From: an uncultured virus (IMG/VR IMGVR_UViG_3300034105_004634)
Lineage: Duplodnaviria > Heunggongvirae > Uroviricota > Caudoviricetes
Strand: one strand, 5' to 3'
IMG/VR virus record: IMGVR_UViG_3300034105_004634
Length of the DNA: 64,000 bases
Position 1 is the first letter of the stretch; the number at the start of each line of letters is the position of its first letter. Positions 3,489 through 51,734 of the stretch are shown in pieces. The notes under the pieces are model-generated. The model ran no database searches. It was not told the origin of the DNA and worked only from the letters and a program-made list of their open reading frames with translations. A program made the translations under genes and the position numbers.

Positions 3489-4313
3489 TTATTTAATTAT
3501 AGTAAAATATTCAAATAATGACATATCAGAAAATGGAATTCTATTGTGGCTTCTACTTGTTTGCGCGTATTTTTGTTTGATCCCATCCACATACATAGTA
3601 AAGCGTCCATCATCCCCCATATAGAATTTGTCCCAACCTTTATTTGTAAATAGACGTTTAACGTCAAGTTGCTCTATTGCTAGATTATCGAAAGAGATCA
3701 CGCATTTACCAAGATATTTGGGCAAATGAATAAACCACCTTCTGATTTCTTTATCGACACTCTCGCTATGGAAATTTATACCAAAGCCAAAATGTTTATA
3801 ACCAAGTATAAGCACCTTACATTTACCAAAAGCTATGAGTTTTTCCATATCCTCCACCTTGTTTACACCTGCAATAATATGATAAACTATATTATCAGTT
3901 ATTTCCAATAGTGGTTTAATATAAGTGAAATTATTGCTAGTTATAGAAATACCAACACCCTTAACTAGCTCATCTTTAATTAGATAAACAAGCATGTCTT
4001 GGAATGTCTTAAGATGTCCCTGGTTTACCGTTATATTTGCAACGATTCCTCTTTCCTTGAGCGTTTGAAGAAATGGGATAAGATCAGGGTGATCCAAAGG
4101 ATTACCCCCACCGATTGCTAATTCCACACCAGCTGGCAGATCCTTTAAAGTTTCAAGAAGCACATCAAGATCACCATGTTTGCCATTTTTAGTTGAACTC
4201 TCATGACAATTATGAACTAAACAACCTGAGACATAATAATTATGATTGCCATTGATGGTTAGATCATGTACCTTTCCTTGGTACATTTGCTTCTTTATAC
4301 TTTTTATTTTCAT
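3489..4313 (-). CDS. Radical SAM enzyme, C-half: split-intein IntC (35 aa) + C-extein
   Basis: MKIKSIKK...VHDLTINGNHNYYVSGCLVHN (intein blocks F/G), then +1 Cys in CHESS. Followed by AIGGGNPLDHPD and NITVN of the radical SAM barrel. Confidence 0.92.
   Translation of the reverse strand: MKIKSIKKQMYQGKVHDLTINGNHNYYVSGCLVHNCHESSTKNGKHGDLDVLLETLKDLPAGVELAIGGGNPLDHPDLIPFLQTLKERGIVANITVNQGHLKTFQDMLVYLIKDELVKGVGISITSNNFTYIKPLLEITDNIVYHIIAGVNKVEDMEKLIAFGKCKVLILGYKHFGFGINFHSESVDKEIRRWFIHLPKYLGKCVISFDNLAIEQLDVKRLFTNKGWDKFYMGDDGRFTMYVDGIKQKYAQTSRSHNRIPFSDMSLFEYFTIIK
4209..4313 (-). mobile_element. Split intein IntC (radical SAM)
   Basis: Ends His-Asn immediately before Cys+1 (codon 4208-4206). Confidence 0.92.
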
Positions 4314-5166
4314 TTATTGCTTTTTTTGATGGTTTTCTTTGTTTATCTATTTTCCCGTGGCAAACTTCACACAGAACTAGACCTATTTGTTTATTATTAA
4401 TATGGTATTCAATAACACATTTACATAATTCCTGAAATTCCGGGGATGACTGGGAATATTCGGAGATTGGTTTATCTGCAAATTTAGATACTATATCAGT
4501 AAATTTTTCCAAATGGTGCACCTCCAAATTACCTTTAAATGAACAGGTTGTACATTTCCAATTTGCTTCAGAAAACATGGATACTCTCCAGCCTTGCAGA
4601 TTTGATCTTATGTATTTGTAATTGTCCCGGTTCCCCTTATATAGATGATGCTCGTTTCCCCTTTTATGAACCAATTCACCCGATGCTATTTTTGCTTTGC
4701 GTGTGGAAGAAGCTTTGGCAGAGGCCTCCTGATTTTTCATTGGATTATTTTCTTTCATTCTTTTGGAAATATTGTCAATTTTTTCCTGAGTTGTATAAAA
4801 TACACCATTTTTAGATTCAACTCTAATAAGATTTGGATCATTCGATCTAAGTTCTCTTCTTTTTTTGCTCCTTTCATTTAATGATAGCTCCCTATGTTTT
4901 TTTGAACAGTTGGTACATCGTTTGAATCTTTTTTTATCAGTAGCCTTTTTACCATACTTTATTGTTTCTTTTATTACTCCTTTGCAGTCTTTACATTCCA
5001 ATATATGATAATGTTTCTCCATACCAGCCAATTTTGATTTTCTGGTACATTCAGGAGAGCATGAAACCATTTTAGCTTTCCCAATGAATAGTTTACCACA
5101 AATTTTACATTTTATTTCTATAGTCCTTGAATTGTAATATTCTCTTGCCTTCTCTTGATTTGTCAT
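4264..5166 (-). CDS. Free-standing HNH homing endonuclease (Zn-finger and NUMOD3-like segments) between the split-intein halves
   Basis: CxxC repeats, ISKRMKENNPM segment, CTTC...LEVHH...VLCEVCH HNH core. Overlaps the IntC ORF by 50 nt in another frame. Confidence 0.85.
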   Translation of the reverse strand: MTNQEKAREYYNSRTIEIKCKICGKLFIGKAKMVSCSPECTRKSKLAGMEKHYHILECKDCKGVIKETIKYGKKATDKKRFKRCTNCSKKHRELSLNERSKKRRELRSNDPNLIRVESKNGVFYTTQEKIDNISKRMKENNPMKNQEASAKASSTRKAKIASGELVHKRGNEHHLYKGNRDNYKYIRSNLQGWRVSMFSEANWKCTTCSFKGNLEVHHLEKFTDIVSKFADKPISEYSQSSPEFQELCKCVIEYHINNKQIGLVLCEVCHGKIDKQRKPSKKAINENKKYKEANVPRKGT

Positions 5167-5211
5167 AATTGATACACTTTTATCTATATATCTATTATGA
5201 CTTAAAAGTGA

Positions 5212-5655
5212 CTATAAAAAATTACACAGGATGTCAATTACAGAAAGATCCATTGCTTTTATCCATCCCCTATTTTCTGTGAATATTTCGTGATTGTCTG
5301 TGCATTTTATGAATTCACCATTTTCAAGCTCTATTATTACTATTTCCTCATTTATTTCTCTTGTAAATAAATTACAAACTACTTTAATCTCATTCTCAAG
5401 ATTATCAAGATTTCTACTGTATACAGAATCACCTATATTTATTTCATCTATCCTTATATTTCCATTTGGTGTAAGAACCACAGAATCTGGTAAAAAACAA
5501 TAGGAACAACCCATATCACAATAGTCCGTGATCTTGATATCTATGCTCTCCGGATGAAGTACTAATGGTACACCCTCGTACTCACGGATCTTTGTACCAT
5601 CGCTCATAAGGGTAACAGTAGTGTTGCCGTTTTGGTATGTATTAATGGTTGTCAT
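5212..5655 (-). CDS. Radical SAM enzyme, N-half: N-extein (52 aa) + split-intein IntN (95 aa)
   Basis: PESIDIKITDYCDMGCSY, then CFLPDSVVLT (block A) and IKCTDNHEIFTENRGWIKAMDL (block B), then stop. Confidence 0.92.
   Translation of the reverse strand: MTTINTYQNGNTTVTLMSDGTKIREYEGVPLVLHPESIDIKITDYCDMGCSYCFLPDSVVLTPNGNIRIDEINIGDSVYSRNLDNLENEIKVVCNLFTREINEEIVIIELENGEFIKCTDNHEIFTENRGWIKAMDLSVIDILCNFL
5215..5499 (-). mobile_element. Split intein IntN (radical SAM)
   Basis: Cys1 codon TGT at 5499-5497; TxxH motif (TDNH). Confidence 0.92.
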
Positions 5656-6985: not shown

Positions 6986-6988
6986 AAT

Positions 6989-34728: not shown

Positions 34729-36039
34729 TTAAAATTCTTCCTTTTCTTTCTCTTGTACTTCCTCAAATTCCTCCTCATTAACCTGGAATACCTCTATTCC
34801 GTCATTATGCTGTGTTTGGAATAAGCTATTTTGTATTTTCTTAGATGCTCCGTCACCAAGTTTTTCAACCTCCAATGAAGCATCCTTATAAACTTTTTCC
34901 TGTGCCGATATTGCTTTCTTAATTTTTTCTATCCCCTTCTTAACGGAGTCAATAGCATCCTTAGTTTCTTTGATATATTCTGGAGAAAGCTTGACTATTT
35001 CTATTCTCTGCAATCTTGAAGCTATTGTGGAGGAAAAATCTGATAGAAATTTAAGGATCTCATCATTTTTTCTTTTCTTCTCAATCATGAAGTTAAGAAA
35101 TAAAAGTTTAGCTTCCATGAAACTTAGGTCCTTAAGATTGTTCTCATTATCTCTCAATAGTCTTCTAAGCTTAACGAGCTCAAGATGCTGCTTAAAATGA
35201 TCAAGATATTCCTTTACCGATCCAAACTCCATCACGTTCCCATCTCTAACAAAAATAACGTCCTCCTTAACTATAATTTTAGTTAACTTGGAGATATGAT
35301 CCGCTATGAATGCAAATGATTCTGGAGTTACATTTCCCTTTATTTGTATAGCTAGCTCGCATTTACTCTGAGATTTATTTTCTATTCTATAGTCATAGCC
35401 AGATCTTTCCAGCTTAGTTTCAAGCTTATTGATAAAACTATCATATCTCATCACTGGAGGTAGATCAAATATTCTTATTATCTTTCTGTGTGAATCGACC
35501 TCTAAACCGCTTTCTAGCAGCCACGAATTGTCCTCATTCATATATTTGCTTATCTTTCCACTAAAGTCCTTAAAATATGGCTTTAAAAGCTTCGTAGAGC
35601 CTTGCAAGTACTCAATGATGTCCTCAAATTTTCTAGGAAGTATATTACTTCTGTATCCAACAGCTATACCAACTATATGTGTGAGTAATCCAACTGGAAC
35701 CTCCACGTGAATCCAATCGTGTCCACCTTCCTCATTCTTCTCATTAAGATCAGAATTTTTAATTATTATATCCCTAATCTTAGGATTTACCTTAACCGCA
35801 GTATATCTAGGTGATGCTGGACTTGGATTTACAGGTGAACCAAAAAATCCATCGCCTTCCAATATTCCATAGGAACATCCAAATGGTCTTGCTAATCTTG
35901 AAATAGCTCCAGCAAGGGAAGAATTATGAACTACTATACCACATTCACCGATGGAAAAATTATTATACTTTTCAACGGTTATATCATAGAAAGGAATGGG
36001 AGATTCCATTTTAATCTTATTAATACTTTTTATTTTCAT
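34729..36039 (-). CDS. Type IIA topoisomerase A-type (gp52/GyrA-like) subunit, C-half: IntC (39 aa) + C-extein
   Basis: MKIKSINKI...FYDITVEKYNNF...VVHN|SSLAGAI; GDGFFGS; catalytic ASPRYT; GIAVGY. Confidence 0.93.
   Translation of the reverse strand: MKIKSINKIKMESPIPFYDITVEKYNNFSIGECGIVVHNSSLAGAISRLARPFGCSYGILEGDGFFGSPVNPSPASPRYTAVKVNPKIRDIIIKNSDLNEKNEEGGHDWIHVEVPVGLLTHIVGIAVGYRSNILPRKFEDIIEYLQGSTKLLKPYFKDFSGKISKYMNEDNSWLLESGLEVDSHRKIIRIFDLPPVMRYDSFINKLETKLERSGYDYRIENKSQSKCELAIQIKGNVTPESFAFIADHISKLTKIIVKEDVIFVRDGNVMEFGSVKEYLDHFKQHLELVKLRRLLRDNENNLKDLSFMEAKLLFLNFMIEKKRKNDEILKFLSDFSSTIASRLQRIEIVKLSPEYIKETKDAIDSVKKGIEKIKKAISAQEKVYKDASLEVEKLGDGASKKIQNSLFQTQHNDGIEVFQVNEEEFEEVQEKEKEEF
35923..36039 (-). 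mobile_element. Split intein IntC (topoisomerase A-type)
   Basis: Blocks F/G ending HN; +1 Ser. Confidence 0.92.
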
Positions 36040-36938
36040 TTTTTATATTTTAAAACCTCATCAAATCCAATATTTATATTTTCGATTAAATCTGTATTAT
36101 TTTTATGGAATTCCTCATAATTTTTATAGAGAGTTTGCTTATCGATATCGCATTTGATACCCTTCGCCATGTTTATTTTTCCGTCAATCATTCTTAGATT
36201 AACAAAACTTCCTATTATATTGGGTGGAATTTTTTCCAGAAATCCAGCTTTTTTGGAATATATATGATCCAGATGATCCCTATCAAATGACCAATTTTTA
36301 TAAAAGTCCGGTCCCCAATATTTCCAGGCAAACTTATTTATATTATGGTTTGTGAAATAATTAACATGATAACAATATATAGCAAACTCATCAGTATCTA
36401 AATCAGATAACCAATTCCCATTATCAATATTTGTTTTTCTTACTTTATTTTTTATTTCACAACTCATAGTGGGATTAGTAAATCCGTATTTTTCAATCCA
36501 CGTTTTTTTAAGTTTCTCTTTTACATCGCTTCTCTGAAAAACATTCCTTACCCCATAATTTTCAAATAATTTTTTTTCCATATCTTTTCTAGATTTTGAA
36601 TTGTTTGATAGATTGTGGCTAGCACCCGTGCTGTTTAATGTTGTCTCCCTCTTAATAACAGCAGAGCATTCATCAGAACAACACTTACGAAATCCTATAA
36701 ACTCGTTCCCGCAATTTAAGCATTTATTATTAAACCTATCCTTCGGTTCCTTTATATTATTATAAAAATCCGGATATTTAATTGTATTATCCTTCCACAC
36801 TTTAAAGTTTTTATTACCATATTTTATTTCCAAAAATCTATCCCTAGATTTACATTTGGTTGAACAATATACAATAAAATCGGAATGAGCCTCGTACTTA
36901 ATTCCACATTTTTTACATTCTTTTATCATCATGATCAT
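36036..36938 (-). CDS. Free-standing HNH-type homing endonuclease between the split-intein halves
   Basis: CxxC...C..C fingers, YG repeats, HLDHIYS...NLRMI...N..K. Start moved to 36938, downstream of GATATATA at 36947-36954. Confidence 0.8.
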   Translation of the reverse strand: MIMMIKECKKCGIKYEAHSDFIVYCSTKCKSRDRFLEIKYGNKNFKVWKDNTIKYPDFYNNIKEPKDRFNNKCLNCGNEFIGFRKCCSDECSAVIKRETTLNSTGASHNLSNNSKSRKDMEKKLFENYGVRNVFQRSDVKEKLKKTWIEKYGFTNPTMSCEIKNKVRKTNIDNGNWLSDLDTDEFAIYCYHVNYFTNHNINKFAWKYWGPDFYKNWSFDRDHLDHIYSKKAGFLEKIPPNIIGSFVNLRMIDGKINMAKGIKCDIDKQTLYKNYEEFHKNNTDLIENINIGFDEVLKYKK

Positions 36939-36971
36939 TTTTATTCTATATATCATGATGATAAAAATATT

Positions 36972-37481
36972 TTATACAGATATTATATCATCTTCCTCCG
37001 AAAGGTCCTCAGCTTTTACCCATCCTTTATCTCTAACCAAAAATGGGTGATTGTATGTACATTTAAAGGTTTCTCCATTTTCCATTTCAATTTCAATAAG
37101 CTCGTCAGTTATTTGGCCTATTCTTGGGGAATGTCCAAGAGATATTGTTGGATTACCAGCATCATCGGCACATCTAACTAAAAGCCTAGCATCTGGATAT
37201 TTTTGTTCCCATTCAGAAATTTTTATTGTTGTACCATCGGCAAGATTTATTTCAGTATCACCATCAATACAATCCCCGTGGTGGTACAGACCAGTTTTTA
37301 TAACCTCACCAACGAGTCCAACAGTTTTACTGAATTTACTTGGTGAGTTTTCCAATATGAGTCTTTGAACCGGCGTTAATGAATCATAAAAATTTGGTAT
37401 ACCTCTACTTTGTAAAACATAAAGAGCATAGGATCTATATTGAGTGTTTATCTGATCAGTAATGGTTAAATGTTTATTCAT
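36972..37481 (-). CDS. Type IIA topoisomerase A-type subunit, N-half: N-extein (70 aa) + IntN (99 aa)
   Basis: RGIPNFYDSLTPVQR, YHHGD|CIDGDT, FKCTYNHPFL..GWVKAEDL, then stop. Confidence 0.93.
   Translation of the reverse strand: MNKHLTITDQINTQYRSYALYVLQSRGIPNFYDSLTPVQRLILENSPSKFSKTVGLVGEVIKTGLYHHGDCIDGDTEINLADGTTIKISEWEQKYPDARLLVRCADDAGNPTISLGHSPRIGQITDELIEIEMENGETFKCTYNHPFLVRDKGWVKAEDLSEEDDIISV
36975..37271 (-). mobile_element. Split intein IntN (topoisomerase A-type)
   Basis: Cys1 codon at 37271-37269; block B TYNH. Confidence 0.92.
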
Positions 37482-37536
37482 ATGAAGATTTTATTATTTT
37501 ATGTTCATTTTTGATATTGTTTCCTAAGTTTTAAAG

Positions 37537-37878
37537 TTATTTGGGATCTTCAGTGTTATTAATAACAACAGTGTTTCTGCTATGTAGAAATACAAGAACA
37601 GATTCCATAATAACTCCACTCGAGCTTTGTACAAAAGGAAACATAAAATAGTTTAGCCAAATAGGAAGTCCAAAGAACTGATCCAAATTTCCAGAGTAAT
37701 TTATTGCTCCAAAAAGTAGGGCACCGATCCAAAAACCGAGGCATCTGACACACGTCATAAGTTTGGAAATTTTAGGTAATCTAACCAATAAATAATTTCT
37801 TATTGGATCTAATATGTCAGCATTTACTATGGTTGACGTTATGCACCACCCAAAAAATAATATCGAAAGTATGTTCAT
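37537..37878 (-). CDS. Membrane protein (DUF1360-like)
   Basis: ILDPIRNY...KLMTCVRCLGFW with TM helices. Confidence 0.6.
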   Translation of the reverse strand: MNILSILFFGWCITSTIVNADILDPIRNYLLVRLPKISKLMTCVRCLGFWIGALLFGAINYSGNLDQFFGLPIWLNYFMFPFVQSSSGVIMESVLVFLHSRNTVVINNTEDPK

Positions 37879-38909
37879 TATGTAAAGTATTCAAGAGCAT
37901 TTATCTGCTCTTCGTTTAAATCAGTTGGTATTTTTATATTTGCTTTAACTAATATGTCACCGCTGCCAAATCCATTAAATTCAGGTATACCCTTACCTGG
38001 CAATCTAAATATCCTTCCCGATGCAGTACCAGAAGGGATTTTTATTCTATACGCAGAACCACGAAGATTTGTTATTTCCACCTCAGTTCCAATGCAGGCA
38101 TCCTTAAATGATATGTATGCTTCATGAACTAGGTTATTTCCATCTCTAGTGTAGATAGAATGTATAAATTCGTTGACATTAACAACAAGATCTCCTGGGT
38201 TAGATGGGGATTTTAACCAATCCCCCTTTCCCATAACTAAGTAGGAAACACCTGATATCGATCCTCTTGGAATGTTTATATCAATATCCTCGTCTCTCCT
38301 TATGGTGCCATTTCCGTGACAACTCTGACATTTTTCTTGAGCAATTTTTCCACTTGATGAACACTTGTGGCAGTCCTCAACAACCGACATATCACCAAAA
38401 GCATGTCTTATTGTTCTTGCCTTCTTGCCAAGACCCTGACACTCGTCACAGTCCTTAGTATTTCCAAATTCTGCACCAGTCCCGCTGCAATCCAAACATT
38501 GAGCAGCTCTGTTTACAGTAACTTTTTTGGTTGTACCTGACATCATCTCCTCTAGCGTAATAGTAATATAAACGTTTATATTATTTCCCCTACGCATGGT
38601 CTGTTGCACATTTCCTCTATTAGCACCCCAGAAACTACCAAAGTCAGAATTCTGGAAGGGATTTTCGCGGTTTGTTCCTCCCCAATTAAAACTACCATTA
38701 AATGGATTTGGGTTGTCATATTTTTGTTTCTTCTGGCCATCAGAAAGAACCTCATAAGCCTCGTTGATCTCCTTAAATTTAGATTCAAGTTCAGGATCGT
38801 TACCAGTCTTATCAGGATGATATTTGACAGCTAATTTTCTATAGGCTTTCTTTATTTCTTCTGCTGTTGCATCTTTGGATACACCGAGAGTTTTATAATG
38901 ATCTGTCAT
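37878..38909 (-). CDS. dnaJ: DnaJ chaperone
   Basis: J-domain with HPD, G/F-rich region, four CxxCxGxG-type repeats, C-terminal domain. Confidence 0.95.
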
Positions 38910-39252
38910 TGTTCAAAGTAGATTTAAAAATATCTTTTATTTTTATTGATGCCTCACCCGGATCAATGGCACCTCTATTTTCCCATTTGTTTCTAAGCTG
39001 TACGGATAGATTTTTTATCTCCATACACGTCTCATATTTTTCTAATTTTTCCCAATATTTAAGCATTCTAGATACAAATAAATCTATCTGATCCGGATTA
39101 TCAAATATGTACACCAGATCATTAGTTTTTTCCCTCAGCGAACTTAAAAATATATCCTGTATGGATCTCTCAATATGTTTCTTTAATATATCATATTGGG
39201 GATGCGTTGGGAATCCTCTCATTTCCCTTCCATTAAAACTAATCATTCTCAT
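38893..39252 (-). CDS. Protein with UVR-like motif
   Basis: [17 protein letters not shown]. Confidence 0.65.
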
Positions 39253-39472
39253 CCTTCTGTAATTTTTCTTTTATCCTGGTAAAGAACTCAAAATCTGACA
39301 GCAATAAAAAATCAGAAACAAGAGCTTCAACTTTCTCAATTCCAAATTTTTCAGTCAAATATCTATATTTAACCTCACCATCTATAGCTTTATCTAAACT
39401 ATATTTTATATCGGGATTCTTTATATTATCGGATAAAGAATCCTCAAATTCACCTATTATATCCTTATTCAT
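39239..39472 (-). CDS. Hypothetical protein
   Basis: 77-aa ORF overlapping both neighbours. Confidence 0.65.
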   Translation of the reverse strand: MNKDIIGEFEDSLSDNIKNPDIKYSLDKAIDGEVKYRYLTEKFGIEKVEALVSDFLLLSDFEFFTRIKEKLQKDEND

Positions 39473-40394
39473 TTAATTTATTATATTTTTCTTCCATATA
39501 TTTCAATAGAGCTTTTTCTTTCATTTTTACCTCGAATTCTATAGAAAAATCTAGTCCATAAGTTTCGGGTCCTCTCCAAATCCAATCTGAATGTGCAACT
39601 TCCTTTGCTGTTGTATCCTCAAACATTCTTTTCGAATCGGAATAATGTGTTATTGCTGGTATGCCCTCAGGCCAAGTTGATAAACAAACCTCTAATGATG
39701 CTTTTTCATCCAATTCTGGGGGATTACATTCATTGTGTAGATAATCGAAAGTAACAGGTATACCAATTTTTGAATAAACCATCCCATACAAATCAACTGA
39801 CGTGTATTGGGATCTTTTATCGTCAACCTCGACAACAAGTCTAGCTTTAACTGAATCTGGAAGCAGCGAGAAATTTTCACAGAACCTATTTGCTGCGCTT
39901 TCCTTATCGGGTTTAGTTGTATTGACATGGATATTTATAGGATAATAAACCGATCTATCCAATCCCATCATGTCCATTATTTCACCATGTTGTGATAATT
40001 CCTTTATAGCTTTTATAACGACATCAGGTCTTTCCGATGCAAGTACACCATACGGAGAGGGATGGAAAGTTATTCGTTGATCCACTGATTTAGCAAAATC
40101 TCCGCATTCACCAAGTATTTTTAATATCTGCTCATAATCCTTTAAATCTGAAATTTCATATTCGGAGCACCAAGGAAACATATCGCTCGACATCCTGTAC
40201 ATTTCTATACCATTAGCATGATTCCATTCCAATATAGTTTTAAGATCTGTAACATTCTGCAAAACAAGATCAGAAACATAGCCAAGACCTCTCTCAAGGA
40301 ATGTTTTCTTAACCATACCCCGGTTTGTAGTAACCTTATCCTTACTCTCCGAAAGAGTCATATTTATGCAGCAGTAACCTAATTTTCTAGACAT
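39465..40394 (-). CDS. uvsE: UV-damage endonuclease UvsE/UVDE
   Basis: LGYCCIN, YRMSSDMFP, RITFHP, LVVEVDDK, TFDYLH, HYS, AHSD, EVKMKE. Start moved to 40394. Confidence 0.92.
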   Translation of the reverse strand: MSRKLGYCCINMTLSESKDKVTTNRGMVKKTFLERGLGYVSDLVLQNVTDLKTILEWNHANGIEMYRMSSDMFPWCSEYEISDLKDYEQILKILGECGDFAKSVDQRITFHPSPYGVLASERPDVVIKAIKELSQHGEIMDMMGLDRSVYYPINIHVNTTKPDKESAANRFCENFSLLPDSVKARLVVEVDDKRSQYTSVDLYGMVYSKIGIPVTFDYLHNECNPPELDEKASLEVCLSTWPEGIPAITHYSDSKRMFEDTTAKEVAHSDWIWRGPETYGLDFSIEFEVKMKEKALLKYMEEKYNKLNE

Positions 40395-40444: not shown

Positions 40445-41143
40445 TTACATTGAACTTAACCATTTTTTTCTTTCGCTTGCTAATTTACCAAAAGCCATCT
40501 CCAAATGCTTCTTTGTTCCAGGATCCTCTCTAAGAACAGTTACCCTTCTATTTGTCATGACATGATCCCAATCCTCAAGCGACAATGATCCTAGACCTTT
40601 GAGATATCTAACATTGTTCTTATCGCCCTTAGATTTTTTAAATTCATCGAGGGAATAGTAATACTTCTTAGCTCTGTCACCAACCGTTACCAATGGTGTA
40701 TCTAAAAAATGTATTCTATTTTGTTTTATCATCCATGGAAACCACATATAAAAAAGATTTATAAGAAGCGAAGTAATATGAGCACCGTCGGGATCTTGGT
40801 CGGTGGCAATAACAACCTTTTCGAATGGACATACCAAATTCTGACCCTCAGGATCTAAATTTAGTATCTGCATAAGCTCCAATATCTCCCTGTTATCAGA
40901 AAGGTCAGAAAGACTTCTAGCGTTCTTTATCTTTCCCTTTAGAGCATAAACCCCATCCCTTTTAGGATCTCTTTTTTGTAAAATTGAACCCATAGCTGAA
41001 TTGTGGCTAATTATTCCATTATCCAGAACAAAGCTTTCATCGTCTTCTACACTAAAATCTATACAATTCATTACCTCGCTGGTATCTGAGATTTCCTCAA
41101 TTTCAACTATTCTAAAAAAATTCTCTTGTTCTACTGTTAACAT
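40445..41143 (-). CDS. Type IIA topoisomerase B-type subunit, C-half: IntC (48 aa) + TOPRIM C-extein
   Basis: CIDFSVEDDESFVLDNGIISHN|SAMG; ALKGKIKN; ATDQDPDGAHI; RYLKGLGSL. Confidence 0.93.
   Translation of the reverse strand: MLTVEQENFFRIVEIEEISDTSEVMNCIDFSVEDDESFVLDNGIISHNSAMGSILQKRDPKRDGVYALKGKIKNARSLSDLSDNREILELMQILNLDPEGQNLVCPFEKVVIATDQDPDGAHITSLLINLFYMWFPWMIKQNRIHFLDTPLVTVGDRAKKYYYSLDEFKKSKGDKNNVRYLKGLGSLSLEDWDHVMTNRRVTVLREDPGTKKHLEMAFGKLASERKKWLSSM
41000..41143 (-). mobile_element. Split intein IntC (topoisomerase B-type), acidic
   Basis: Ends SHN; +1 Ser. Confidence 0.9.
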
Positions 41144-42513
41144 TCTAAAATTTGTTTTATTTCTTTTAAAGATTCATTTAATAAATTATTCCATAGATTT
41201 TTATTTCTTAGTGGATTTTTACCTTTATACGATAGCGTTATAATTTCATATCCTTTATACTTAGCTAACATTTTTTTTCTCTCGTCATATTCCAATTTTT
41301 CTTTCTTTGTAAATCTATGATTAAATTTCATATTATCCCAAGCATTAGAACAGGTGTCGTCTACAGGATGCCAAAAATTATTATCATATTCTATAATTAT
41401 CCTCTTTGATGCATATTCAAAATAGAGATCATAAAAGTAAATTCTCCTATATTCGGAGTCCCAAAGAAAAAATTCGTCTCCATTCATCTTAATATTTTTT
41501 AATATAATTCCAATCTCCGCTAATTCACTCAAAAGCATTTCGAAGAAAACACTAGCCTCTTTGCTATAAAATTTTTTATTAATATTGGACCATCTGTCAA
41601 TCCATGCTTTCTCTCCATACTTCAAAATGTATTTTTCACTATTAAAGCTAAAAGATTTTCGTAAATTATTAAAAGCTATTAATCCCTCATGATAACCAAG
41701 TAATTGTATAAAATATTCTAAAGATTTTCTATATTCGATATTTTTTCTTCTATTGTTCCAAGAATCCACACCAAATTTTTCTATATACTGATCTTTAGTT
41801 CTTCCTAGTGATTTCTTATATGCTTCAAATTTTTCCTTACCGTTAATCTCACCATATTTTTCAATAAAAAAACTAATATTGCATACAGATTTCTTTTTTA
41901 TCATCTCATTATAGGAGTCAATCCCATATTTTTCTATTAGTATATTCTTAGAATTTCCCTTTGATACATTATTCTTAAAATCAACAAATCTTCTATTTCC
42001 CTCGTCCGCCCCATATTTTTCCAAATACCAATCAAGATTTTTACTCTGATATTTTTTATAATCGTCCGGGGTTTCGTGATTTTGTTTATAAAAGGGCGAT
42101 TTGTTTCTGGTTATCAAATAAGTATTAGCTTCGGATTCAGAAATTTTAAAAGATTTCGAGATGTATTCAATAGAATTTGGATTTAATAAACTACCAATGC
42201 AATTTTTTCTTCCACCCTTACAATGATAATTTTGCATACCACCAGCCATAGAATACTGAATACCTGATATCATAACTATTCTTTCCGTATGATCAATTTT
42301 ATAGATTATATCATATTTAGAATCATTTCCACAAAATGGGCATTCCGAAATGCTTAATTTTAATTCATTTTTAATTATAGTGAAATAATCAATGCCTCTT
42401 TTTTTTAAAGCAGTTTTAGCATATCTTATCATTTTATCATCCTGGTAAGGCTTAGAAATTTCAAATTCACTTGTAAAATTTCCTATCTTAATCATATATT
42501 TTATCTTATTCAT
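41137..42513 (-). CDS. Free-standing endonuclease (KYG helical repeats + PD-(D/E)xK/Vsr-like domain) between the split-intein halves
   Basis: Repeated EKYG units; YFYDLYF...IIIEYDNNFWHP...YDERKK..AK.KGY. Start moved to 42513, after GATATATA at 42531-42538. Confidence 0.8.
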   Translation of the reverse strand: MNKIKYMIKIGNFTSEFEISKPYQDDKMIRYAKTALKKRGIDYFTIIKNELKLSISECPFCGNDSKYDIIYKIDHTERIVMISGIQYSMAGGMQNYHCKGGRKNCIGSLLNPNSIEYISKSFKISESEANTYLITRNKSPFYKQNHETPDDYKKYQSKNLDWYLEKYGADEGNRRFVDFKNNVSKGNSKNILIEKYGIDSYNEMIKKKSVCNISFFIEKYGEINGKEKFEAYKKSLGRTKDQYIEKFGVDSWNNRRKNIEYRKSLEYFIQLLGYHEGLIAFNNLRKSFSFNSEKYILKYGEKAWIDRWSNINKKFYSKEASVFFEMLLSELAEIGIILKNIKMNGDEFFLWDSEYRRIYFYDLYFEYASKRIIIEYDNNFWHPVDDTCSNAWDNMKFNHRFTKKEKLEYDERKKMLAKYKGYEIITLSYKGKNPLRNKNLWNNLLNESLKEIKQILEC

Positions 42514-42547
42514 AGTAGAAGGTTTTATGCTATATATCCTCTCAACA

Positions 42548-44287
42548 TTAAATAAAATCAAAAACACAGATTAGCTCCCCTTCTCTGATATCCTTCCCAT
42601 ATTTCATAATAAAAGATGAGTCTTTCTTATTGTACACACAGTATTTATGGGAGTTACTAAATTGATACCATGATCCATCATCCAAAAATAGCTGATTTGG
42701 ATATTTTTCATTCTTACATTTGCTATATGAAATTACCTCAAGGGTCCCGATAAAATTTCCAAAATTAGATTTAACCAAGCAATGGATGGACTTATCGATC
42801 TCTCCTACCTTTTTAAAAGAAAACTCTTTAGTTTTTTTATTAAAAGTATAATATTGATGGCTTATTGGTTGCTTTATTGAAGTTCCATCGGAGAGTCTGA
42901 TAGTTAAGCATTCTTTTAATTTTCTCTGCTTATTTATTATTTTTCTAATTCTATTCTTATGCGTTACAACTTCGTCTCCAATAAGAACATCCTTCAGGTG
43001 AGCATTTATAAGTTCACCATCTCTCCAAATATTTATTTTTTCATTCTCATCTATACATAATCCTTCAACTATAAAAAGATTTTCTGCTCTCATAGCAGTG
43101 GGTGGAAAGTATTTATTGGAATTCTTTATTCTTATACCTTTCTTTTCCTTTCTGATCTTTTTAAGTTCAGATTCTTTTCTTCTATCGTCGACACATTTTT
43201 TAATCTTCTTATAAACGTCGCTTTTAAAGAATTTATTAAGAACAGAATCAAAGTGTCTCATTATAGTTGGTTCGACCTCCTCCCTCTTAGATACAAACTT
43301 AGTTTTATTCTGATCCCCGAATCTAACTATACTCGGTGACATATTTAATATGATCAGCGTATCATAGAAATGGTGCCCAAGTGTGTCATCAAGTTCTATG
43401 TTTATTTTATCTTGTATAATTTTCTGGTGTATACCCGTGCAGAGTGCGCTATTAACAAAAGAAAACGTGCCAGATTCTGGTTTTTTCTCCCATATCAATA
43501 TTTCACCTATGCTTGCTTTTGCCGACCAATCCGGATTAAGACCAGATTGTATGATTTCACTCTTACCATTCCATATGAACTCTATCTTAAGATTTGCTGT
43601 TTTTTCCTCAGTTTCTAGAACTCTTTTCTTTAAACAGAGATATGATATTATTGTTGAATAGTCCCACTTTGAATTATCAAATACCACCGAATTTGGAATA
43701 AATGAAACTCTAGTGCCAGTTTTTGTTGTTTTTTTCCTCGGTGTTATGTTTGCTTTATTCGATTTAAAAGATGTCCAGGTTTGAAGATATGACTCGCTTG
43801 AATTTATAGTTTCTATTTCAAACATGTCAGATAGTGCATTAACCAATTTTACACCAAAACCGTTGGTCCCCACTATGGACTCTGATATATCGTCATTATC
43901 AAAATTTGAACCAGCTCTAAGCATGGATACAGCAGTTTCTATATTAGACAATTTACTTTTTTTATTTATAGCGGAGCCATTAATGAATCCATCACCAGAA
44001 TCGGTTATTGAAACCATATTGGTTATATTATCAATTCTCACCGTAATAAATTTCATCATGCCTGACATTCTTTTTGCTTCATCAATACAATTTGAAAAAA
44101 CCTCATCAAAAAGTTTATAAAGTCCCACTGAATGTTCTTTACTTACAGCCTTTATGAATCCGTCACCGATTATAGGTAATGTCTCCTCACTCTTTTTAAC
44201 AGAACCAACATACATTGTCGGTCTCCTTATTATGTGTTCAAAATCACTAAGTACCTCTATAGTTTTATTGACTTTCTTATTATCCAT
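42548..44287 (-). CDS. Type IIA topoisomerase B-type (gp39/GyrB-like) subunit, N-half: ATPase N-extein (410 aa) + IntN (169 aa)
   Basis: EHIIRRPTMYVGS, DEVFSNCIDE, DSGDG, GTNGFGVK, TGTRVSF, QNK, LFIVEGL|CIDENE. Confidence 0.93.
   Translation of the reverse strand: MDNKKVNKTIEVLSDFEHIIRRPTMYVGSVKKSEETLPIIGDGFIKAVSKEHSVGLYKLFDEVFSNCIDEAKRMSGMMKFITVRIDNITNMVSITDSGDGFINGSAINKKSKLSNIETAVSMLRAGSNFDNDDISESIVGTNGFGVKLVNALSDMFEIETINSSESYLQTWTSFKSNKANITPRKKTTKTGTRVSFIPNSVVFDNSKWDYSTIISYLCLKKRVLETEEKTANLKIEFIWNGKSEIIQSGLNPDWSAKASIGEILIWEKKPESGTFSFVNSALCTGIHQKIIQDKINIELDDTLGHHFYDTLIILNMSPSIVRFGDQNKTKFVSKREEVEPTIMRHFDSVLNKFFKSDVYKKIKKCVDDRRKESELKKIRKEKKGIRIKNSNKYFPPTAMRAENLFIVEGLCIDENEKINIWRDGELINAHLKDVLIGDEVVTHKNRIRKIINKQRKLKECLTIRLSDGTSIKQPISHQYYTFNKKTKEFSFKKVGEIDKSIHCLVKSNFGNFIGTLEVISYSKCKNEKYPNQLFLDDGSWYQFSNSHKYCVYNKKDSSFIMKYGKDIREGELICVFDFI
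42551..43057 (-). mobile_element. Split intein IntN (topoisomerase B-type), long, basic, with duplicated block-B region
   Basis: Cys1 codon at 43057-43055; two L.DG......SH.Y...NKK...F..K...I units. Confidence 0.85.
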
Positions 44288-47547: not shown

Positions 47548-48297
47548 TTATGAGCCACACATATCGCATTGATCTGGCGAATCCAACGAACAACTAACTC
47601 CTTCCAGAACATCGTCAGCTGCTTTACTTAGTTCTTCGCTAGTCATTCCATTAATTTTAACATTAACAGGTTTAGTAACTTCAGCCGGTGTTGCTTTTAT
47701 CGCAGATTCTTTCATGGAATTTTTAGTTTTTTCCATATCTATACCAAGTCCAGCAAGGGCATCAACCGCTGCTTTAGTTCTTAAATAATACATACCCGTT
47801 TTAAGACCAGCTTTCCATGAATAGAAATGTGCAGAAGTTAATTTAGCAGAATTCACATTCTCTATAAATAAATTAAGAGATTGTGATTGGCATATAAATT
47901 TACCCCTACCTGCGGACATATCTATCAGGTCTTTTTGTTTAATTTCCCAAACAGTTCTATAAATTTCTCTAACATTTTCAGGTATCTGTTCTATATGTTG
48001 AACAGATCCTTTATGGTAAACTATTAGGTTTTTCATATCCTCGCTCCATAATCCAAGAGAAATAAGATCCTTAACCAGGTGTTTATTTATTATGATAAAC
48101 TCACCACTTAGCGTTCTTCTTGTGTATATATTAGAGGTGAATGGTTCGAATGCTTCGTTGTTACCCATAATCTGAGCAGTGTTGTGTGAAACCATACCAT
48201 TTTCTAACAAATACTCATGAACATCAGGAACTTCAAGATCCCACGTTGGTTTTTCTTGGTCTAGCTTTCTTAATGATTTTATTTTTATCGTTTTCAT
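47548..48297 (-). CDS. nrdA: Ribonucleotide reductase alpha subunit, C-half: IntC (39 aa) + C-extein
   Basis: TWDLEVPDVHEYLLENGMVSHN|TAQIMGNNEAFEP; QSQSLN; GLKTGMYYLRT; C-terminal CDMC. Confidence 0.95.
   Translation of the reverse strand: MKTIKIKSLRKLDQEKPTWDLEVPDVHEYLLENGMVSHNTAQIMGNNEAFEPFTSNIYTRRTLSGEFIIINKHLVKDLISLGLWSEDMKNLIVYHKGSVQHIEQIPENVREIYRTVWEIKQKDLIDMSAGRGKFICQSQSLNLFIENVNSAKLTSAHFYSWKAGLKTGMYYLRTKAAVDALAGLGIDMEKTKNSMKESAIKATPAEVTKPVNVKINGMTSEELSKAADDVLEGVSCSLDSPDQCDMCGS
48181..48297 (-). mobile_element. Split intein IntC (NrdA)
   Basis: Ends SHN; +1 Thr. Confidence 0.92.
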
Positions 48298-49486
48298 TAT
48301 ATTTATATTTTATCTTATTTTTATTTAAAAATTCCTCGATTAGATTAATGTTAACATCTGCCGGATCGCTATCCCATATAACCAGATATGAAAATCCATT
48401 ATCCTTCGCTATTCTTTTTTTTCCCATATCATATTCATGTGCTTCTCTTATTTTTTTATCAGTCTTTAAATAAACAGAAATTCCTTTATATTCATCAATT
48501 GAATATTTATCCAGTCTTGGGTGCCATTTTATACCATTGAATTCTATTATAGCCTTAGTTTCAAAATCCATTATACAAAAATCATAACAATAGCTTCTCG
48601 AATTTATTTTATCATAAAGAAAAAAATGTTTACTTTCCTCAATTTCAACAAAATTACGAATTTTTTTTTGATTTAGATATTCAACAATTGGCAGAAAATA
48701 TAACAAGGATATTTTTGAAGCAGAACCAAATTTGACTCTCCTACTTTTTAGTATTTCTGTATATTCGTTTGTTGCTAATAAATAATCTCCGTTATTTTTT
48801 TTGAGATAATAATTAAAATTTATTTTTTTCCTTTCATTCAAATCCTTAATGTAATCATTATATTGCTCCTCCCCTCCGAGTTCAATGATTTTTTTATCTT
48901 TGTCTATTTTAGTGGATTCTATTCTATCTGAATAAAGTATTTTTGCTTTTTCTATATCACCGTTACATTTTCTGAGAGCCCAATCAAAAGAGCATGAATT
49001 TTTGGTCAATTTATAGTTATTCCATCTATCAATACCGGAATCACCATATCTAATTTTGAATTTATCCAGGGTTTGTTTTGATTTTTCTTTAAAACTATCA
49101 AAGAGCTTATAACCTTCATCTTTCCCGTATTTAATAATAAAATTATCAAGCGTTGTTGATTTATCCTTTTTGTATTTTTTAACCATATTAGTTGATTCCT
49201 CCATAGTATATCCCATTCTCATCCAATAATCCTCCTTGTATGGAGTTACTATTTTGGAATTTTTTTCATTCCACATTTCTTCAAAATTATCGCCATACAG
49301 CAATTTATGGTATTCAATACCTGAAGAGTAAGGATTTAATGTTTTCAATTCTAATAATTTCTCAAATCTTTCGAAATATGAGTTTGATTCTGATGAATTT
49401 AAAAGGTCAAATTTACTAAATATTGTATCCACCATCTTCGATGGGTATCTGCAATAATAAGACGATGGATTAATTTTGGTCTGCAT
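48233..49486 (-). CDS. Free-standing endonuclease (KYG repeats + PD-(D/E)xK/Vsr-like), same family as 41137-42513
   Basis: YCYDFCI...AIIEFNGIKWHP...YDMGKKRIAKDNGF...IWD; GATATATA at 49506-49513; overlaps IntC by 65 nt. Confidence 0.8.
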   Translation of the reverse strand: MQTKINPSSYYCRYPSKMVDTIFSKFDLLNSSESNSYFERFEKLLELKTLNPYSSGIEYHKLLYGDNFEEMWNEKNSKIVTPYKEDYWMRMGYTMEESTNMVKKYKKDKSTTLDNFIIKYGKDEGYKLFDSFKEKSKQTLDKFKIRYGDSGIDRWNNYKLTKNSCSFDWALRKCNGDIEKAKILYSDRIESTKIDKDKKIIELGGEEQYNDYIKDLNERKKINFNYYLKKNNGDYLLATNEYTEILKSRRVKFGSASKISLLYFLPIVEYLNQKKIRNFVEIEESKHFFLYDKINSRSYCYDFCIMDFETKAIIEFNGIKWHPRLDKYSIDEYKGISVYLKTDKKIREAHEYDMGKKRIAKDNGFSYLVIWDSDPADVNINLIEEFLNKNKIKYKYNENDKNKIIKKARPRKTNVGS

Positions 49487-49535
49487 ATCGATTAATGTTT
49501 TCTTTTATATATCTCCAATGCCGACCAAAATTTTT

Positions 49536-51734
49536 CTATTGTTGGACAATCATATCTCTTTCAGTAAGTTCATCAGCTCTAACCCAAATCTCGTTACCAT
49601 CTCTAATACATAAAAATTTATGATTATACGAACATGTTATAATATTTCCATCCTCCGTTTCGACTTCAAACACTGGTACTTTCCCGTTAAAAAATATCTT
49701 TTCACATTCCTTAGTACCAAATCTCGTTTCTACAGATACTGGTGAATTAAAAAATACCCACTGCTGATCCCCGTTTTCCTCTATCGATTTCCAGTTTATA
49801 CCTTGGGCTTCCATTATTTCGATATACGATTTTGGACCCTCAGGAGTTAGAACTTTGGATTCTGCTAAAATACAAGAAGCGGTTGGCATCGGTGCTAATA
49901 GTAAAGAATTCCTTGCTCCATTCTTCATCACATCCTTCCTAAGCTTACCCCAATCCCATCTTCCTGATAGCTGTTCGTCACTGAATCCCCACATGTTAAA
50001 TTGGAATTCACCATTAGATAGGGGTGAACCCCGAAATGTTTCATAAGCTCCCTCTTTTTTTGCAAGTGCCATGGAGGAAGACATAGAAGCAAAATATATT
50101 GTTTCAAATACTTCCTCGTTGATTCTTTTAGCCTCAGGTGAAGCAAAAGGAATACCAAGAATTGCAAATAAATCAGCAAGGCCCTGAATACCTATACCTA
50201 TAGGTCTATGTCTCATGTTTGATTTTTTAGTCTCTGGTGTTGGATAATAGTTAACGTCTATTACCTTATTAAGATTAAGCGTTGTCTGATATGCAACATC
50301 ATAAAGTGCCTGGTGATCAACCTCACATCTACCCTTAGATATTTTAGAGGTTCTATTATCAGTAGATTTAAGGAATTTATTAACAGGTATCGAAGCAAGG
50401 TTACAAACAGCTTGCTCGTCCTTATCCGTATATTCCAATATTTCCGTGCACAAATTAGAGCTTTTAATAGTACCTAGATTTTTCTGGTTTGATTTTTTAT
50501 TAGCAGCATCCTTATAAAGTATATAAGGGGTTCCAGTTTCAATTTGCGAATCTAATATTCTAGTCCAAAGATCCCTGGCTTTCATTGTTTTTTTAGCTTT
50601 ACCTGCAGCTTCAGCAGCCTCATATGCAGCTTCAAATTCATCACCATATAATTCCCAAAGTCCCTGTACATCGGAAGGAGAAAATAAGCTCCATTCCTTA
50701 TCATCTTCCACTCTTTTCATAAATAAATCAGGGGTCCATAGTGCTAAGAAAAGATCTCTAGCTCTAAATTCTTCCTTACCGTGATTTTTTCTAAGATCCA
50801 AGAAATCCTCAATATCTGAATGCCATGGTTCAATATAGATTGCAAACGAGCCTTTACGTTTTCCACCGCCTTGGTCAACATATCTAGCGGTTTCGTTAAA
50901 AACTTTAAGCATCGGGATTATACCATTGGATGTACCATTCGTACCTCTGATATAAGAACCAGTACCTCTCACATTATGAACAGCAAGACCTATTCCTCCA
51001 GCATTCTGTGATATGGCAGCTACATCAGCAAGCGTTTTATAAATTCCAGGAATCGAATCATCGGACATCATCAATAAGAAGCAAGATGATAATTGTGGTT
51101 TTTTCGTACCAGCATTAAATAATGTAGGTGTTGCATGTGTCATCATATGATTAGACAAAAGCTCATAAGTTTTAATAACGCTCTTTATATCTTCTCCCCA
51201 TATTCCCGCAGCTACACGCATGTACATATGCTGGGGTGATTCACAAACCTGGCCATTGGTTTTTAATAGGTAGCTTTTTTCAAGAGTTCTAAATCCAAAA
51301 TATTCAAAATCAAAATCTCTTTCATGTATAATTGCACCATCAAGCTTTTGTTTATTCTTCATAACAACCTCGTAAGTGAGGTCATTTATAATACCAGCAG
51401 GCTCATTGGTTTCTGGATTTATATAATCATATAGATCCTGTATGGTTTCTGAGAATTTCTTCTTGGTCGTTTTGTGCAATCTTGACACTGCTATTCTTGA
51501 AGCCAATATGGAATAATCAGGATGTCTAGGTATTAACGAAGCAGCAGTCTCAGCAGTAAGATTATCTAGTTCCTGTGTGGTTATACCATCATAGATACCA
51601 GCAATAACTTTCTGAGCTACTTCCATAGCATCAACATAATCGACATTTAAGCCGTATGTCATTTTTCTTATTCTATTTGAAATTTTTTCAAACCTAACAG
51701 CTTCTTTTGAGCCATCTCTTTTAGTTACAAACAT
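49536..51734 (-). CDS. nrdA: Ribonucleotide reductase class Ia alpha subunit, N-half: N-extein (620 aa) + IntN (112 aa)
   Basis: ATP cone [47 protein letters not shown]...CSYNHKF...WVRADEL, then stop. Confidence 0.95.
49539..49874 (-). mobile_element. Split intein IntN (NrdA)
   Basis: Cys1 codon at 49874-49872; block B SYNH. Confidence 0.92.

Follow-up and report, generated by a model that had tools for sequence, protein, structure and literature searches.

The window analysed here (64,000 nt, the whole stretch of DNA under study, to which all coordinates refer) comes from the uncultured virus record IMGVR_UViG_3300034105_004634 (Caudoviricetes) and carries four apparently essential enzyme genes that are each interrupted by the two halves of an intein. 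The enzymes are a radical SAM protein, the DNA-cleavage subunit (TopoA, gp52/GyrA-like) and the ATPase/Toprim subunit (TopoB, gp39/GyrB-like) of a topoisomerase II, and NrdA. At all four loci, the N-extein runs into an N-terminal intein half (IntN) that ends at a stop codon, a middle open reading frame (ORF) follows, and a third ORF starts with the Met of the C-terminal intein half (IntC) and continues into the C-extein. The three ORFs are co-directional and stand in N-to-C order. The ORF listing placed all 12 ORFs on the minus strand, and the layout that an earlier note on this DNA had described for the radical SAM, topo A-type, topo B-type and NrdA genes is confirmed in full.

The radical SAM locus consists of an N piece at 5212-5655, a middle ORF at 4264-5166 and a C piece at 3489-4313. 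Its N-extein of 52 amino acids (aa; 5500-5655) ends in CDMGCSY, which holds the first two Cys of the CX3CX2C motif, and is followed by a 95-aa IntN (5215-5499) with Cys1 and the block B sequence TDNH, closed by a TAG stop (5212-5214). Behind the free-standing 300-aa middle ORF, the 35-aa IntC (4209-4313) ends in VHN and the 239-aa C-extein (3489-4208) begins with the third Cys of the motif as its +1 residue. At the TopoA locus, the N piece (36972-37481) comprises a 70-aa extein ending in YHHGD (37272-37481) and a 99-aa IntN (36975-37271; Cys1, block B TYNH), the middle ORF (36036-36956) encodes 306 aa, and the C piece (34729-36039) comprises a 39-aa IntC ending in VHN (35923-36039) and a 397-aa extein with Ser at +1 (34729-35922). 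The TopoB N piece (42548-44287) contains a 410-aa extein ending in VEGL (43058-44287) and a 169-aa IntN (42551-43057), made up of a HINT core of about 101 aa and a conserved 68-aa C-terminal extension. The TopoB middle ORF (41137-42567) has 476 aa when read from a GTG codon, although its likely start is the ATG at 42513, and the C piece (40445-41143) carries an acidic 48-aa IntC ending in SHN (41000-41143) before a 184-aa Toprim extein with Ser at +1 (40445-40999). In the NrdA gene, the N piece (49536-51734) joins a 620-aa extein ending in PMPTAS (49875-51734) to a 112-aa IntN (49539-49874; Cys1, block B SYNH), the middle ORF (48233-49486) encodes 417 aa, and the C piece (47548-48297) starts with a 39-aa IntC ending in SHN (48181-48297), followed by a 210-aa extein with Thr at +1 (47548-48180). 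The end of the middle ORF overlaps the start of IntC in another frame by 50 nt at the radical SAM locus and 65 nt at the NrdA locus, and by only 4 nt (TopoA) and 7 nt (TopoB); these overlaps may reflect translational coupling. As for other intein halves in the window, none of 65 further ORFs of at least 100 aa matched an intein family at E <= 0.001, and a profile built from the four pairs found nothing more among 912 six-frame stretches (next best E 0.15 and 0.39).

When the intein halves were removed in silico, the recomputed boundaries gave products of 291 (radical SAM), 467 (TopoA), 594 (TopoB) and 830 aa (NrdA), the same figures that the earlier note had predicted. The conserved motifs it had proposed at the junctions were restored as well, namely CDMGCSY/CHE, YHHGD/SS, VEGL/SA and PMPTAS/TAQI (a slash marks the junction), and the boundary computation bore out its +1 residues Cys, Ser, Ser and Thr. 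All four insertions fall inside catalytic or substrate-binding motifs. The radical SAM insertion lies directly before the third Cys of CX3CX2C, and that Cys is the +1 nucleophile. The motif, intact in 17/17 relatives, is whole here only after in-silico splicing (CDMGCSY/C); because the +1 Cys is the third ligand of CX3CX2C, the iron-sulfur cluster site would be completed by splicing only. For the topoisomerase, YHHGD/S presumably corresponds to the HPHGD/S83 stretch of Escherichia coli GyrA, and we take EGL/SA to be the Toprim motif EGD/SA of GyrB. In NrdA, the thiyl-radical Cys (NLCTE) is located about 180 residues upstream of the PMPTAS/T insertion site.

Family matches assign TopoA and TopoB to a T4-type two-subunit topoisomerase II. 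The TopoA C-extein matched DNA_topoisoIV (E 3.6e-29) and the TopoB C-extein matched Toprim (E 1e-7) and TOPRIM_C, all above cut-offs, and HATPase_c was found in the TopoB N-extein under its cut-off (E 3.5e-4, 21.4 bits; cut-off 26.4). The best phage matches of the two proteins are annotated as topoisomerase II large and medium subunits. NrdA is assigned to the alpha subunit of a class Ia ribonucleotide reductase: its ATP-cone, all-alpha and barrel domains were matched in Pfam at E 1.9e-15, 2.8e-25 and 4.7e-155 (Ribonuc_red_lgC), the C-extein alone matched Ribonuc_red_lgC at E 2.6e-44, and an nrdB gene adjoins it (51751-52734, E 3.9e-109). The radical SAM family scores were below threshold (PF04055, 18.5 and 22.6 bits against a cut-off of 29.5), and the uninterrupted homologue in G001, the closest relative described below, matched 19 radical SAM models of NCBIfam, all far under their cut-offs. 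NCBIfam also gave a weak match (E 0.007) to its model of the archaeal Tes radical SAM protein, which contains an intein; this match indicates no more than that radical SAM inteins have been catalogued before. With 57% identity, the tblastn match between the radical SAM C piece and gp128 of phage Ma-LMM01 begins at residue 36, which is the +1 Cys.

A profile hidden Markov model search for intein halves, as the earlier note had suggested, matched PF14890 (Intein_splicing) to 8/8 extein-bearing pieces (E 3e-10 to 0.0065). The radical SAM N piece was above the curated cut-off of 35.8 bits (40.5 bits, E 3e-10), and the radical SAM IntC matched PF14890 at E 1.6e-5 and TIGR01443 (intein_Cterm) at 18 bits, against a cut-off of 15.6. 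E-values for IntN and IntC were 5.5e-7 and 6.1e-4 in TopoA, and 6.8e-8 and 1.7e-4 in NrdA. Among PDB sequences, the best phmmer match of the radical SAM IntN was 2lwy (3.4e-7), followed by the NrdJ-1 intein 8ubs (1e-4); the TopoA IntN also matched NrdJ-1 8ubs (7e-5), and the NrdA IntN weakly matched the inteins of DnaB, GyrA and DnaE (E 0.003-0.07). The residues typical of class 1 inteins were found at all loci: Cys1, the block F Asp and the C-terminal HN in 4/4, with block B reading TDNH, TYNH, SYNH and, in TopoB, PISH, where the Thr is not kept. These residues are conserved in homologues. Cys1, Thr and His are invariant in 5/5 radical SAM variants. At the TopoA site, which has IntN homologues in four other phages (L007, L008, L009 and L015), Cys1, (T/S)xxH and HN/S are kept in 5/5 loci. 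In the TopoB lineage, Cys1 and the block B His are invariant in 27/27 sequences, and the block F Asp, His, Asn and +1 Ser in 16/16. By these residues, the four pairs fit HINT-domain inteins of the class 1 type.

For TopoB, selection could be estimated by comparison with the diverged phage L060 (70% IntN identity). The proportion of nonsynonymous differences (pN) was 0.156 in the IntN core, 0.164 in IntC and 0.169 in the N-extein, with proportions of synonymous differences (pS) of 0.71-0.82; synonymous sites are saturated, so that only pN versus pS can be quoted and not dN/dS. On these values, the intein halves appear as constrained as the enzyme itself and under purifying selection, and the endonuclease ORF less so (pN 0.26, pS 0.66). 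A model of the TopoB IntN-IntC complex reached an ipSAE of 0.81; the highest-scoring of three controls had 0.00, and the threshold applied was attained by 116/157 solved complexes and 2/215 mismatches. Runs agreed in at least 95% of contacts, the pLDDT of the partners was at least 78, and contacts were mostly at residues 410-511, with few in the 68-aa extension. The model supports association at most, and its pass may reflect likeness to solved split inteins. The extension itself (residues 102-169 of IntN, 42551-42754 on the minus strand, behind the HINT core) shows purifying selection (pN 0.23, pS 0.75) and, in the majority of relatives, is acidic (mean -5.6). It contains a repeat of the core's block B hairpin (37% over 30 aa, E 2e-4).

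We searched IMG/VR with the N pieces for contigs whose match ends at the extein-intein boundary. The closest relative found, G001, is a phage of 430,120 bp with terminal repeats (CheckV 100%) that is collinear with the window at approximately 79-85% nucleotide identity and has all four genes uninterrupted (292, 467, 594 and 830 aa). The exteins abut exactly on the G001 proteins, between residues 52 and 53 (radical SAM), 70 and 71 (TopoA), 410 and 411 (TopoB), and 620 and 621 (NrdA), with 83-99% identity. Identical residues in the N- and C-exteins numbered 47/52 and 198/239 for radical SAM (G001 residues 1-52 and 53-291), 69/70 and 348/397 for TopoA (1-70 and 71-467), 367/410 and 177/184 for TopoB (1-410 and 411-594), and 599/620 and 185/210 for NrdA (1-620 and 621-830). 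Alignment of the spliced proteins with uninterrupted homologues, a check that the earlier note had named, gave lengths of 291/292, 467/467, 594/594 and 830/830. The junction residues are the same as in G001 at three sites, and the radical SAM junction has one difference (Ser for Ala at -2). Relative to G001 DNA, the window contains inserts of about 1.29, 1.35, 2.06 and 1.69 kb, bounded by the start of IntN and the end of IntC. Two other relatives, G002 and G003, have uninterrupted NrdA and TopoB genes (these two genes were looked at). In cultured references, the exteins also abut on NrdA of phage pT24, gp128 of Ma-LMM01 and the topoisomerase II medium subunit of phage A4; for the A4 large subunit, only the C-extein junction was covered (N/SAMGS on D/SAISN).

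Occupancy of these sites varied from gene to gene. The radical SAM gene was uninterrupted in 17/17 IMG/VR relatives, and its N piece with IntN was found in five protein clusters. For TopoA, 25/32 IMG/VR loci matched the extein alone; among 16 loci that were read, 11 were uninterrupted (453-469 aa), four were split at the same site and one had a contiguous 878-aa form. For TopoB, 34/47 matches were N pieces with the same IntN (48-100% identity), and 31 matches were C pieces. In three of its relatives (P0067, P0072 and P0076), the TopoB C piece is about 208 aa long and ends in a second IntN after the Toprim motif ATDxD; the subunit is there encoded in three pieces, predicted to be joined via two split inteins. 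A contig from sequencing run X7 leaves the window C-extein at the NrdA splice junction (48174) and reads ...APMPTAS-TS... by hand translation, a single-contig hint that a relative present in this lake sample has an NrdA allele without the insert. Two candidates were rejected. Cultured Cellulophaga and Tenacibaculum phages, which tblastn seemed to match past NrdA residue 620, have ordinary uninterrupted genes and no same-site intein, and a joint of 40957 to 43061 on one contig was too short (side of 27) to count as an empty-site TopoB allele.

The earlier note had called the ORFs between the intein halves endonucleases. By fold and homology, this is well supported for the NrdA and TopoB ORFs, as Vsr-like/EDxHD-type enzymes, and it is only suggested for the radical SAM and TopoA ORFs, which would be HNH-like. 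In the model of the NrdA ORF (pLDDT 86), about 250 aa at the N-terminus form a long helical region, and residues 257-392 match the catalytic domain of I-Bth0305I (3r3p; Z 8.6, root-mean-square deviation 2.8, 95/97 residues aligned, 21% identity) and Vsr (Z 8.4 and 8.1), with further restriction-endonuclease-like folds ranking lower; Foldseek alone gave only non-significant matches (E >= 0.06). The C-terminal domain superposes on both structures, and I-Bth0305I belongs to the EDxHD (Vsr-like) homing endonucleases (Taylor et al. 2011; PMC3239194), but unlike I-Bth0305I, this ORF stands between intein halves and not in a group I intron, and carries the helical region. Across 24 relatives, Asp302 and Glu315 are conserved and His322 nearly so; Pfam found no family in the ORF or in these 24 sequences. 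The TopoB ORF is homologous to the NrdA ORF (BLASTP E 8.7e-8), belongs to the same PHROG (phrog_22677, E 2.1e-15) and has an orthologue in L060. Neither of these two Vsr-like ORFs had a PDB sequence match, singly or as a profile. The TopoA ORF combines an N-terminal Zn-ribbon/DUF7487 region (DUF7487 E 4.7e-9; PHROG 12131 and 3339, 'homing endonuclease', E 8e-8 and 4e-7) with an HNH-like C-terminal motif recognized by eye. The radical SAM ORF has no match in Pfam, PHROG or NCBIfam; an HNH motif was seen by eye, and its nearest entries in the ESM Atlas fall into HNH clusters (scores 0.92-0.94). We take both as leads only.

Putative expression signals were found near the middle ORFs. Hairpins at the start codon were significant for the radical SAM (z -7.8) and NrdA ORFs (z -6.1), with 0/200 shuffles as stable, and not for the TopoA and TopoB ORFs (z -2.1 and -0.2). 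The sequence GATATATARA occurs six times in the window against 1.9 expected, a count reached by 0/100 shuffles, each time shortly upstream of an ORF start (5183-5192, 36945-36954, 49504-49513, 53274-53283 and 63213-63222 on the minus strand, and 54778-54787 on the plus strand). Three copies lie 6-17 nt ahead of an in-frame ATG of a middle ORF; the TopoB middle ORF has GATATATAGC where the others have GATATATARA. As the other three copies precede ordinary genes, the motif looks like a type of phage promoter, and we consider it a candidate promoter element.

Taken together, we believe, with a probability of roughly 85%, that four independent fractured-gene cassettes inserted into a large freshwater phage and that the enzymes are rejoined by predicted protein trans-splicing. 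Each cassette would be a class-1-type HINT intein whose endonuclease became a separate gene, as a result of which the host gene would be transcribed and translated as two polypeptides. IntN and IntC would associate and fold into one HINT domain, and splicing would take the usual four steps, starting with an N-S acyl shift at Cys1, passing through trans-esterification onto the +1 residue (Cys, Ser or Thr) and cyclisation of the Asn, and ending with another acyl shift. The expected output is an intact radical SAM protein of 291 aa, topoisomerase II cleavage and ATPase/Toprim subunits of 467 and 594 aa, and NrdA of 830 aa. The middle ORFs would act as homing endonucleases, two Vsr-like/EDxHD and two HNH-like, presumably cutting intein-less alleles in co-infecting relatives so that repair spreads the whole cassette. 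Each middle ORF seems to have a promoter-like motif of its own, and at least two have a start hairpin, so we propose that the endonucleases are expressed apart from the host gene. Trans-splicing, homing and separate endonuclease expression are all predictions from sequence. The four pairs would belong to unrelated lineages gathered by separate invasions.

The window comes from a metagenome-type assembly with no isolate, and the stops and frame changes could in principle be assembly errors, or the pieces pseudogenes in a defective genome. The NrdA locus is present in 24 listed lake or freshwater runs, with at least half of its words in 14; three of the listed runs are marked as possible sources of the window, and the comparison relied on four other runs, whose contigs may come from one sampling campaign. 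These contigs lie on the loci with identical architecture and 0 differences: X4 (35776-38771) and X7 (35653-39806) span the whole TopoA locus, another X4 contig (38761-45054) spans the whole TopoB locus, and contigs of X4, X5 and X7 cover the NrdA junctions. In addition, the 25-kb IMG/VR contig L061 shares 6827 nt with the window at 99.985% identity, the complete NrdA cassette among them, and the radical SAM N piece is present letter for letter on six contigs, with four variant clusters at 99, 88, 88 and 57%. The layout is kept in diverged phages (L007-L009, L015, L060 and GenBank LR756500.1), and all parts are under purifying selection. The earlier note had itself raised assembly error as an objection; with the loci reproduced in four other lake runs, artefact or decay is very improbable. 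Removal at the RNA level, with the inserts acting as group I or II introns that carry an endonuclease ORF, is less probable still. Group I introns are plentiful in large phages of Bacteroidota-type hosts (PMC12880540, PMC7886860), but no Rfam intron family reached the gathering score over the whole window or E <= 1 on the four loci, and the flanks of the inserts encode intein halves that are in frame with the exteins and conserved as protein. Another proposal is that the halves associate without splicing, the intein fragments serving as dimerisation domains of non-covalent two-chain enzymes. Split genes can function in this way, as does the intein-less split NrdA of phage Aeh1 (PMC2677866, PMC3045599), and the DNA polymerase of the window is split without any intein. 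Several further points weigh against the trans-splicing interpretation. The TopoB lineage has Pro or Ser in block B in place of the usual Thr, departing from TxxH, and its IntN bears the 68-aa extension beyond the HINT core. The TopoB halves also gave the weakest PF14890 matches (E 0.0024 for IntN and 0.0065 for IntC; 18.1 and 16.7 bits), and its IntN had no PDB sequence match, singly or as a profile. Seven of the eight PF14890 matches were under the curated cut-off (16.7-32.9 bits), as expected since the pieces are half domains. The saturation of synonymous sites mentioned above limits the selection estimate. For the homing part of the scheme, the radical SAM and TopoA middle ORFs had no match to a nuclease family of Pfam, NCBIfam or the nuclease part of PHROGs, and the TopoA ORF fold model, built from three sequences, was unusable (pLDDT 42.8). 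Against association without splicing, all nucleophiles and the HN are invariant across 5 to 27 relatives, and an unremoved 130-aa intein would sit within the CX3CX2C loop of the radical SAM protein. With insertions in the active-site motifs YHHGD/S, EG(L/D)/SA and PMPTAS/T, the unspliced enzymes would be unlikely to function, and we regard this alternative as improbable.

The last alternative accepts trans-splicing and concerns the four pairs as a set. The earlier note had argued that four pairs in one infected cell should be under selection for mutual orthogonality. They would then be a toolkit shaped against cross-pairing, and the TopoB charge reversal and the 68-aa extension would be candidate adaptations. 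Identity among the co-resident halves is indeed low (25-33% for IntN and 17-40% for IntC). In three pairs, IntN is acidic (net -9 to -13) and the N-terminus of IntC is basic, and the polarity of the TopoB pair is reversed (IntN +7, IntC -12). However, this reversal is common to the whole TopoB lineage (IntN core 0 to +9 in 27/27, IntC -4 to -13 in 16/16), some of whose phages have no demonstrated copy of the other three inteins, and hence did not arise by tuning in this genome. For three inteins of the four, same-site relatives in other phages are closer (57-70% identity over the N piece or intein-bearing region) than the co-residents, so they were already divergent when they met; for the NrdA intein, only an identical copy was found elsewhere. 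All four cassettes are absent from G001, so that co-residence looks recent. Moreover, three IntC halves begin with MK(I/T)IK(S/I) and share 34-40% identity, which makes some cross-association possible and is unlike the outcome of strong selection against cross-talk. Orthogonality also appears to be the default for unrelated split inteins, 15/16 of which were mutually orthogonal in a published test (PMC7090010). Selection for orthogonality through co-residence is therefore unsupported, and a selected toolkit is unlikely. The pairs are likely orthogonal by descent, and correct pairing would be, as part of the interpretation favoured above, a by-product of the divergence of four unrelated lineages. 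Close relatives differ in which genes are occupied. G001, without the four cassettes, has a fractured SNF2-type helicase gene (DE/CH site, 278-aa middle ORF) and a thymidylate-synthase-like gene with a contiguous intein bearing a LAGLIDADG-type insert; the window has an uninterrupted copy of the latter gene. At least five split-intein genes are found in G004, which is the counterpart of LR756500.1 in IMG/VR, including PolB, a ribonucleotide reductase and a clamp-loader-like ATPase. Such gene-by-gene differences in occupancy are as expected of independent selfish elements. The window regions matching the two G001 genes are 63234-64000 (helicase) and 24689-25483, and the helicase junction would fall just past the window end.

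Comparison with LR756500.1, an unannotated GenBank record of an uncultured phage of 462 kb, pointed to an exchange of nuclease domains. Its TopoB and TopoA genes, which are adjacent there, are split at the same sites (EGL/C...HN/SA and YHHGD/C...HN/SA), but the nuclease domains of the two middle ORFs are swapped: its TopoB ORF ends HNH-like and its TopoA ORF Vsr-like, the reverse of the window. The N-terminal regions are homologous site by site (34% over 204 aa, E 4e-30, for TopoB; 32% over 180 aa, E 1e-16, for TopoA). Among five TopoA loci, three have an HNH-like and two a Vsr-like end behind one conserved N-terminal module. A tentative interpretation, to which we give somewhat less than even odds, is that, at both topoisomerase sites, a site-specific and presumably DNA-recognizing N-terminal module is kept while the nuclease domain is exchanged between Vsr-like and HNH-like types in different phages, the cassettes being long-lived 'docking sites' and the four pairs a ready-made, mutually orthogonal trans-splicing set. 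If true, the split intein would be locked in by selection on the host enzyme while nuclease modules turn over, and the set would offer three kinds of +1 residue (Cys, Ser, Ser and Thr), a pair of reversed charge and a pair bearing the duplicated 68-aa appendage.

The loci of the window belong to the class of fractured genes, whose layout is real, has been known since 2009 and is not unique to this phage; the earlier note had rightly connected it with metagenomic phage loci. Dassa et al. (2009; PMC2677866) described fractured genes of environmental phages, among them gp41-1, gp41-8, NrdJ-1, IMPDH-1, NrdA-1 to NrdA-7, DnaE, ligase and terminase. As in the window, these loci have an N-extein with IntN, a free-standing ORF (there a homing endonuclease gene) and IntC with a C-extein in co-directional order. 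The insertions again interrupt conserved motifs of enzymes of DNA metabolism, some of the loci have Vsr-like endonucleases, and hairpins and control elements are found at the start of the endonuclease gene. The host proteins differ in that the window adds a radical SAM enzyme and the two topoisomerase II subunits; the main text of that study contains none of the terms 'topoisomerase', 'gyrase' and 'radical SAM'. The NrdA site described there adjoins the thiyl-radical Cys, unlike PMPTAS/T in the window. The earlier note knew of no split inteins in radical SAM or in both topoisomerase subunits, which overstates their uniqueness: both topoisomerase loci are present in LR756500.1, and its counterpart G004 has at least five fractured genes. 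In the full-text papers searched (few from subscription journals, and no supplements or intein registries), no account of a split intein in a gene for topoisomerase II or a radical SAM enzyme was found. Dense introns and inteins in large Bacteroidota phages have already been published (PMC12880540, PMC7886860), and the word 'intein' does not occur in the main text of Al-Shayeb et al. (2020; PMC7162821). The loci also resemble the genes-in-pieces of Aeh1 NrdA (mobE) and the split gp43 of T4-like phages, where a homing endonuclease gene cuts an essential gene into two translated pieces, but those splits are without intein halves and assembly is non-covalent. With respect to the literature searched, the host proteins, the NrdA site, the HNH-like middle ORFs, the duplicated 68-aa extension of the TopoB IntN and the exchange of nuclease domains are new.

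Technologies for protein ligation, labelling and split effectors are built on natural split inteins, of which the well-characterised fast ones stem from the same kind of metagenomic phage loci. The window contributes four more pairs, so far uncharacterised, whose boundaries are exact and whose native +1 residues are Cys, Ser, Ser and Thr. A near relative supplies natural empty-site controls, and dozens of variants are aligned for two of the pairs. With the same backbone found with and without each cassette and the same sites held by different nuclease types, these huge phages offer a clean natural experiment in the life cycle of such intein/endonuclease cassettes, and include one radical SAM enzyme in which the splicing nucleophile would supply an iron-sulfur ligand. 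The view of how such elements work is unchanged, and no new principle is involved.

The phage itself is large, uncultured and of freshwater origin. Its DNA in the window is rich in AT (GC 0.30-0.36) and densely coding, nearly all on the minus strand. Its large-phage gene set includes NrdA/NrdB, thymidylate synthase, DHFR and adenylate kinase, together with UvdE, Fpg, RNase HII, DnaJ and cyclophilin, and, for replication, a clamp-like protein, a family B DNA polymerase (PolB) and the two-subunit topoisomerase II. Near-complete relatives in IMG/VR are 430-435 kb long with terminal repeats. NrdA is nearest to phages of Bacteroidota hosts (Tenacibaculum phage pT24, 57.7%), and megablast found no match of the NrdA locus among GenBank phages. 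Rfam gave a borderline transfer-messenger RNA (tmRNA) match over the full model length at 27410-27887 on the minus strand (47.8 bits against a threshold of 47, E 8e-16); despite this match, ARAGORN predicted no tmRNA or tRNA in the window.

PolB is of the intein-less split kind, in two pieces 21 kb apart on the minus strand (53316-54722 and 31114-32259). The N part (468 aa) comprises the exonuclease and the start of the polymerase domain and ends in a charged helix-like tail, and the C part (381 aa) begins just ahead of the KxxxNSxYG motif. PolB is split identically in G001, where the C part lies directly behind the clamp gene. In the window, a free-standing homing endonuclease gene of 524 aa (32363-33937, plus strand) lies between the clamp gene and the PolB C part on the opposite strand, within a 1.65-kb insert absent from G001. 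Its product matched PHROG 3339 (E 4.5e-112), DUF7487 and, weakly, Vsr, and has a Mom-like C-terminal part. The split-intein PolB locus of G004 holds a 567-aa ORF with the same Vsr-like motif as this 524-aa ORF and, by eye, a similar C-terminal part. Finally, a 105-aa ORF directly after the radical SAM C piece (3171-3488, minus strand), in a stretch not alignable to G001, has a NUMOD1/I-HmuI-like DNA-binding domain and no nuclease domain, and may be a remnant of another homing endonuclease.

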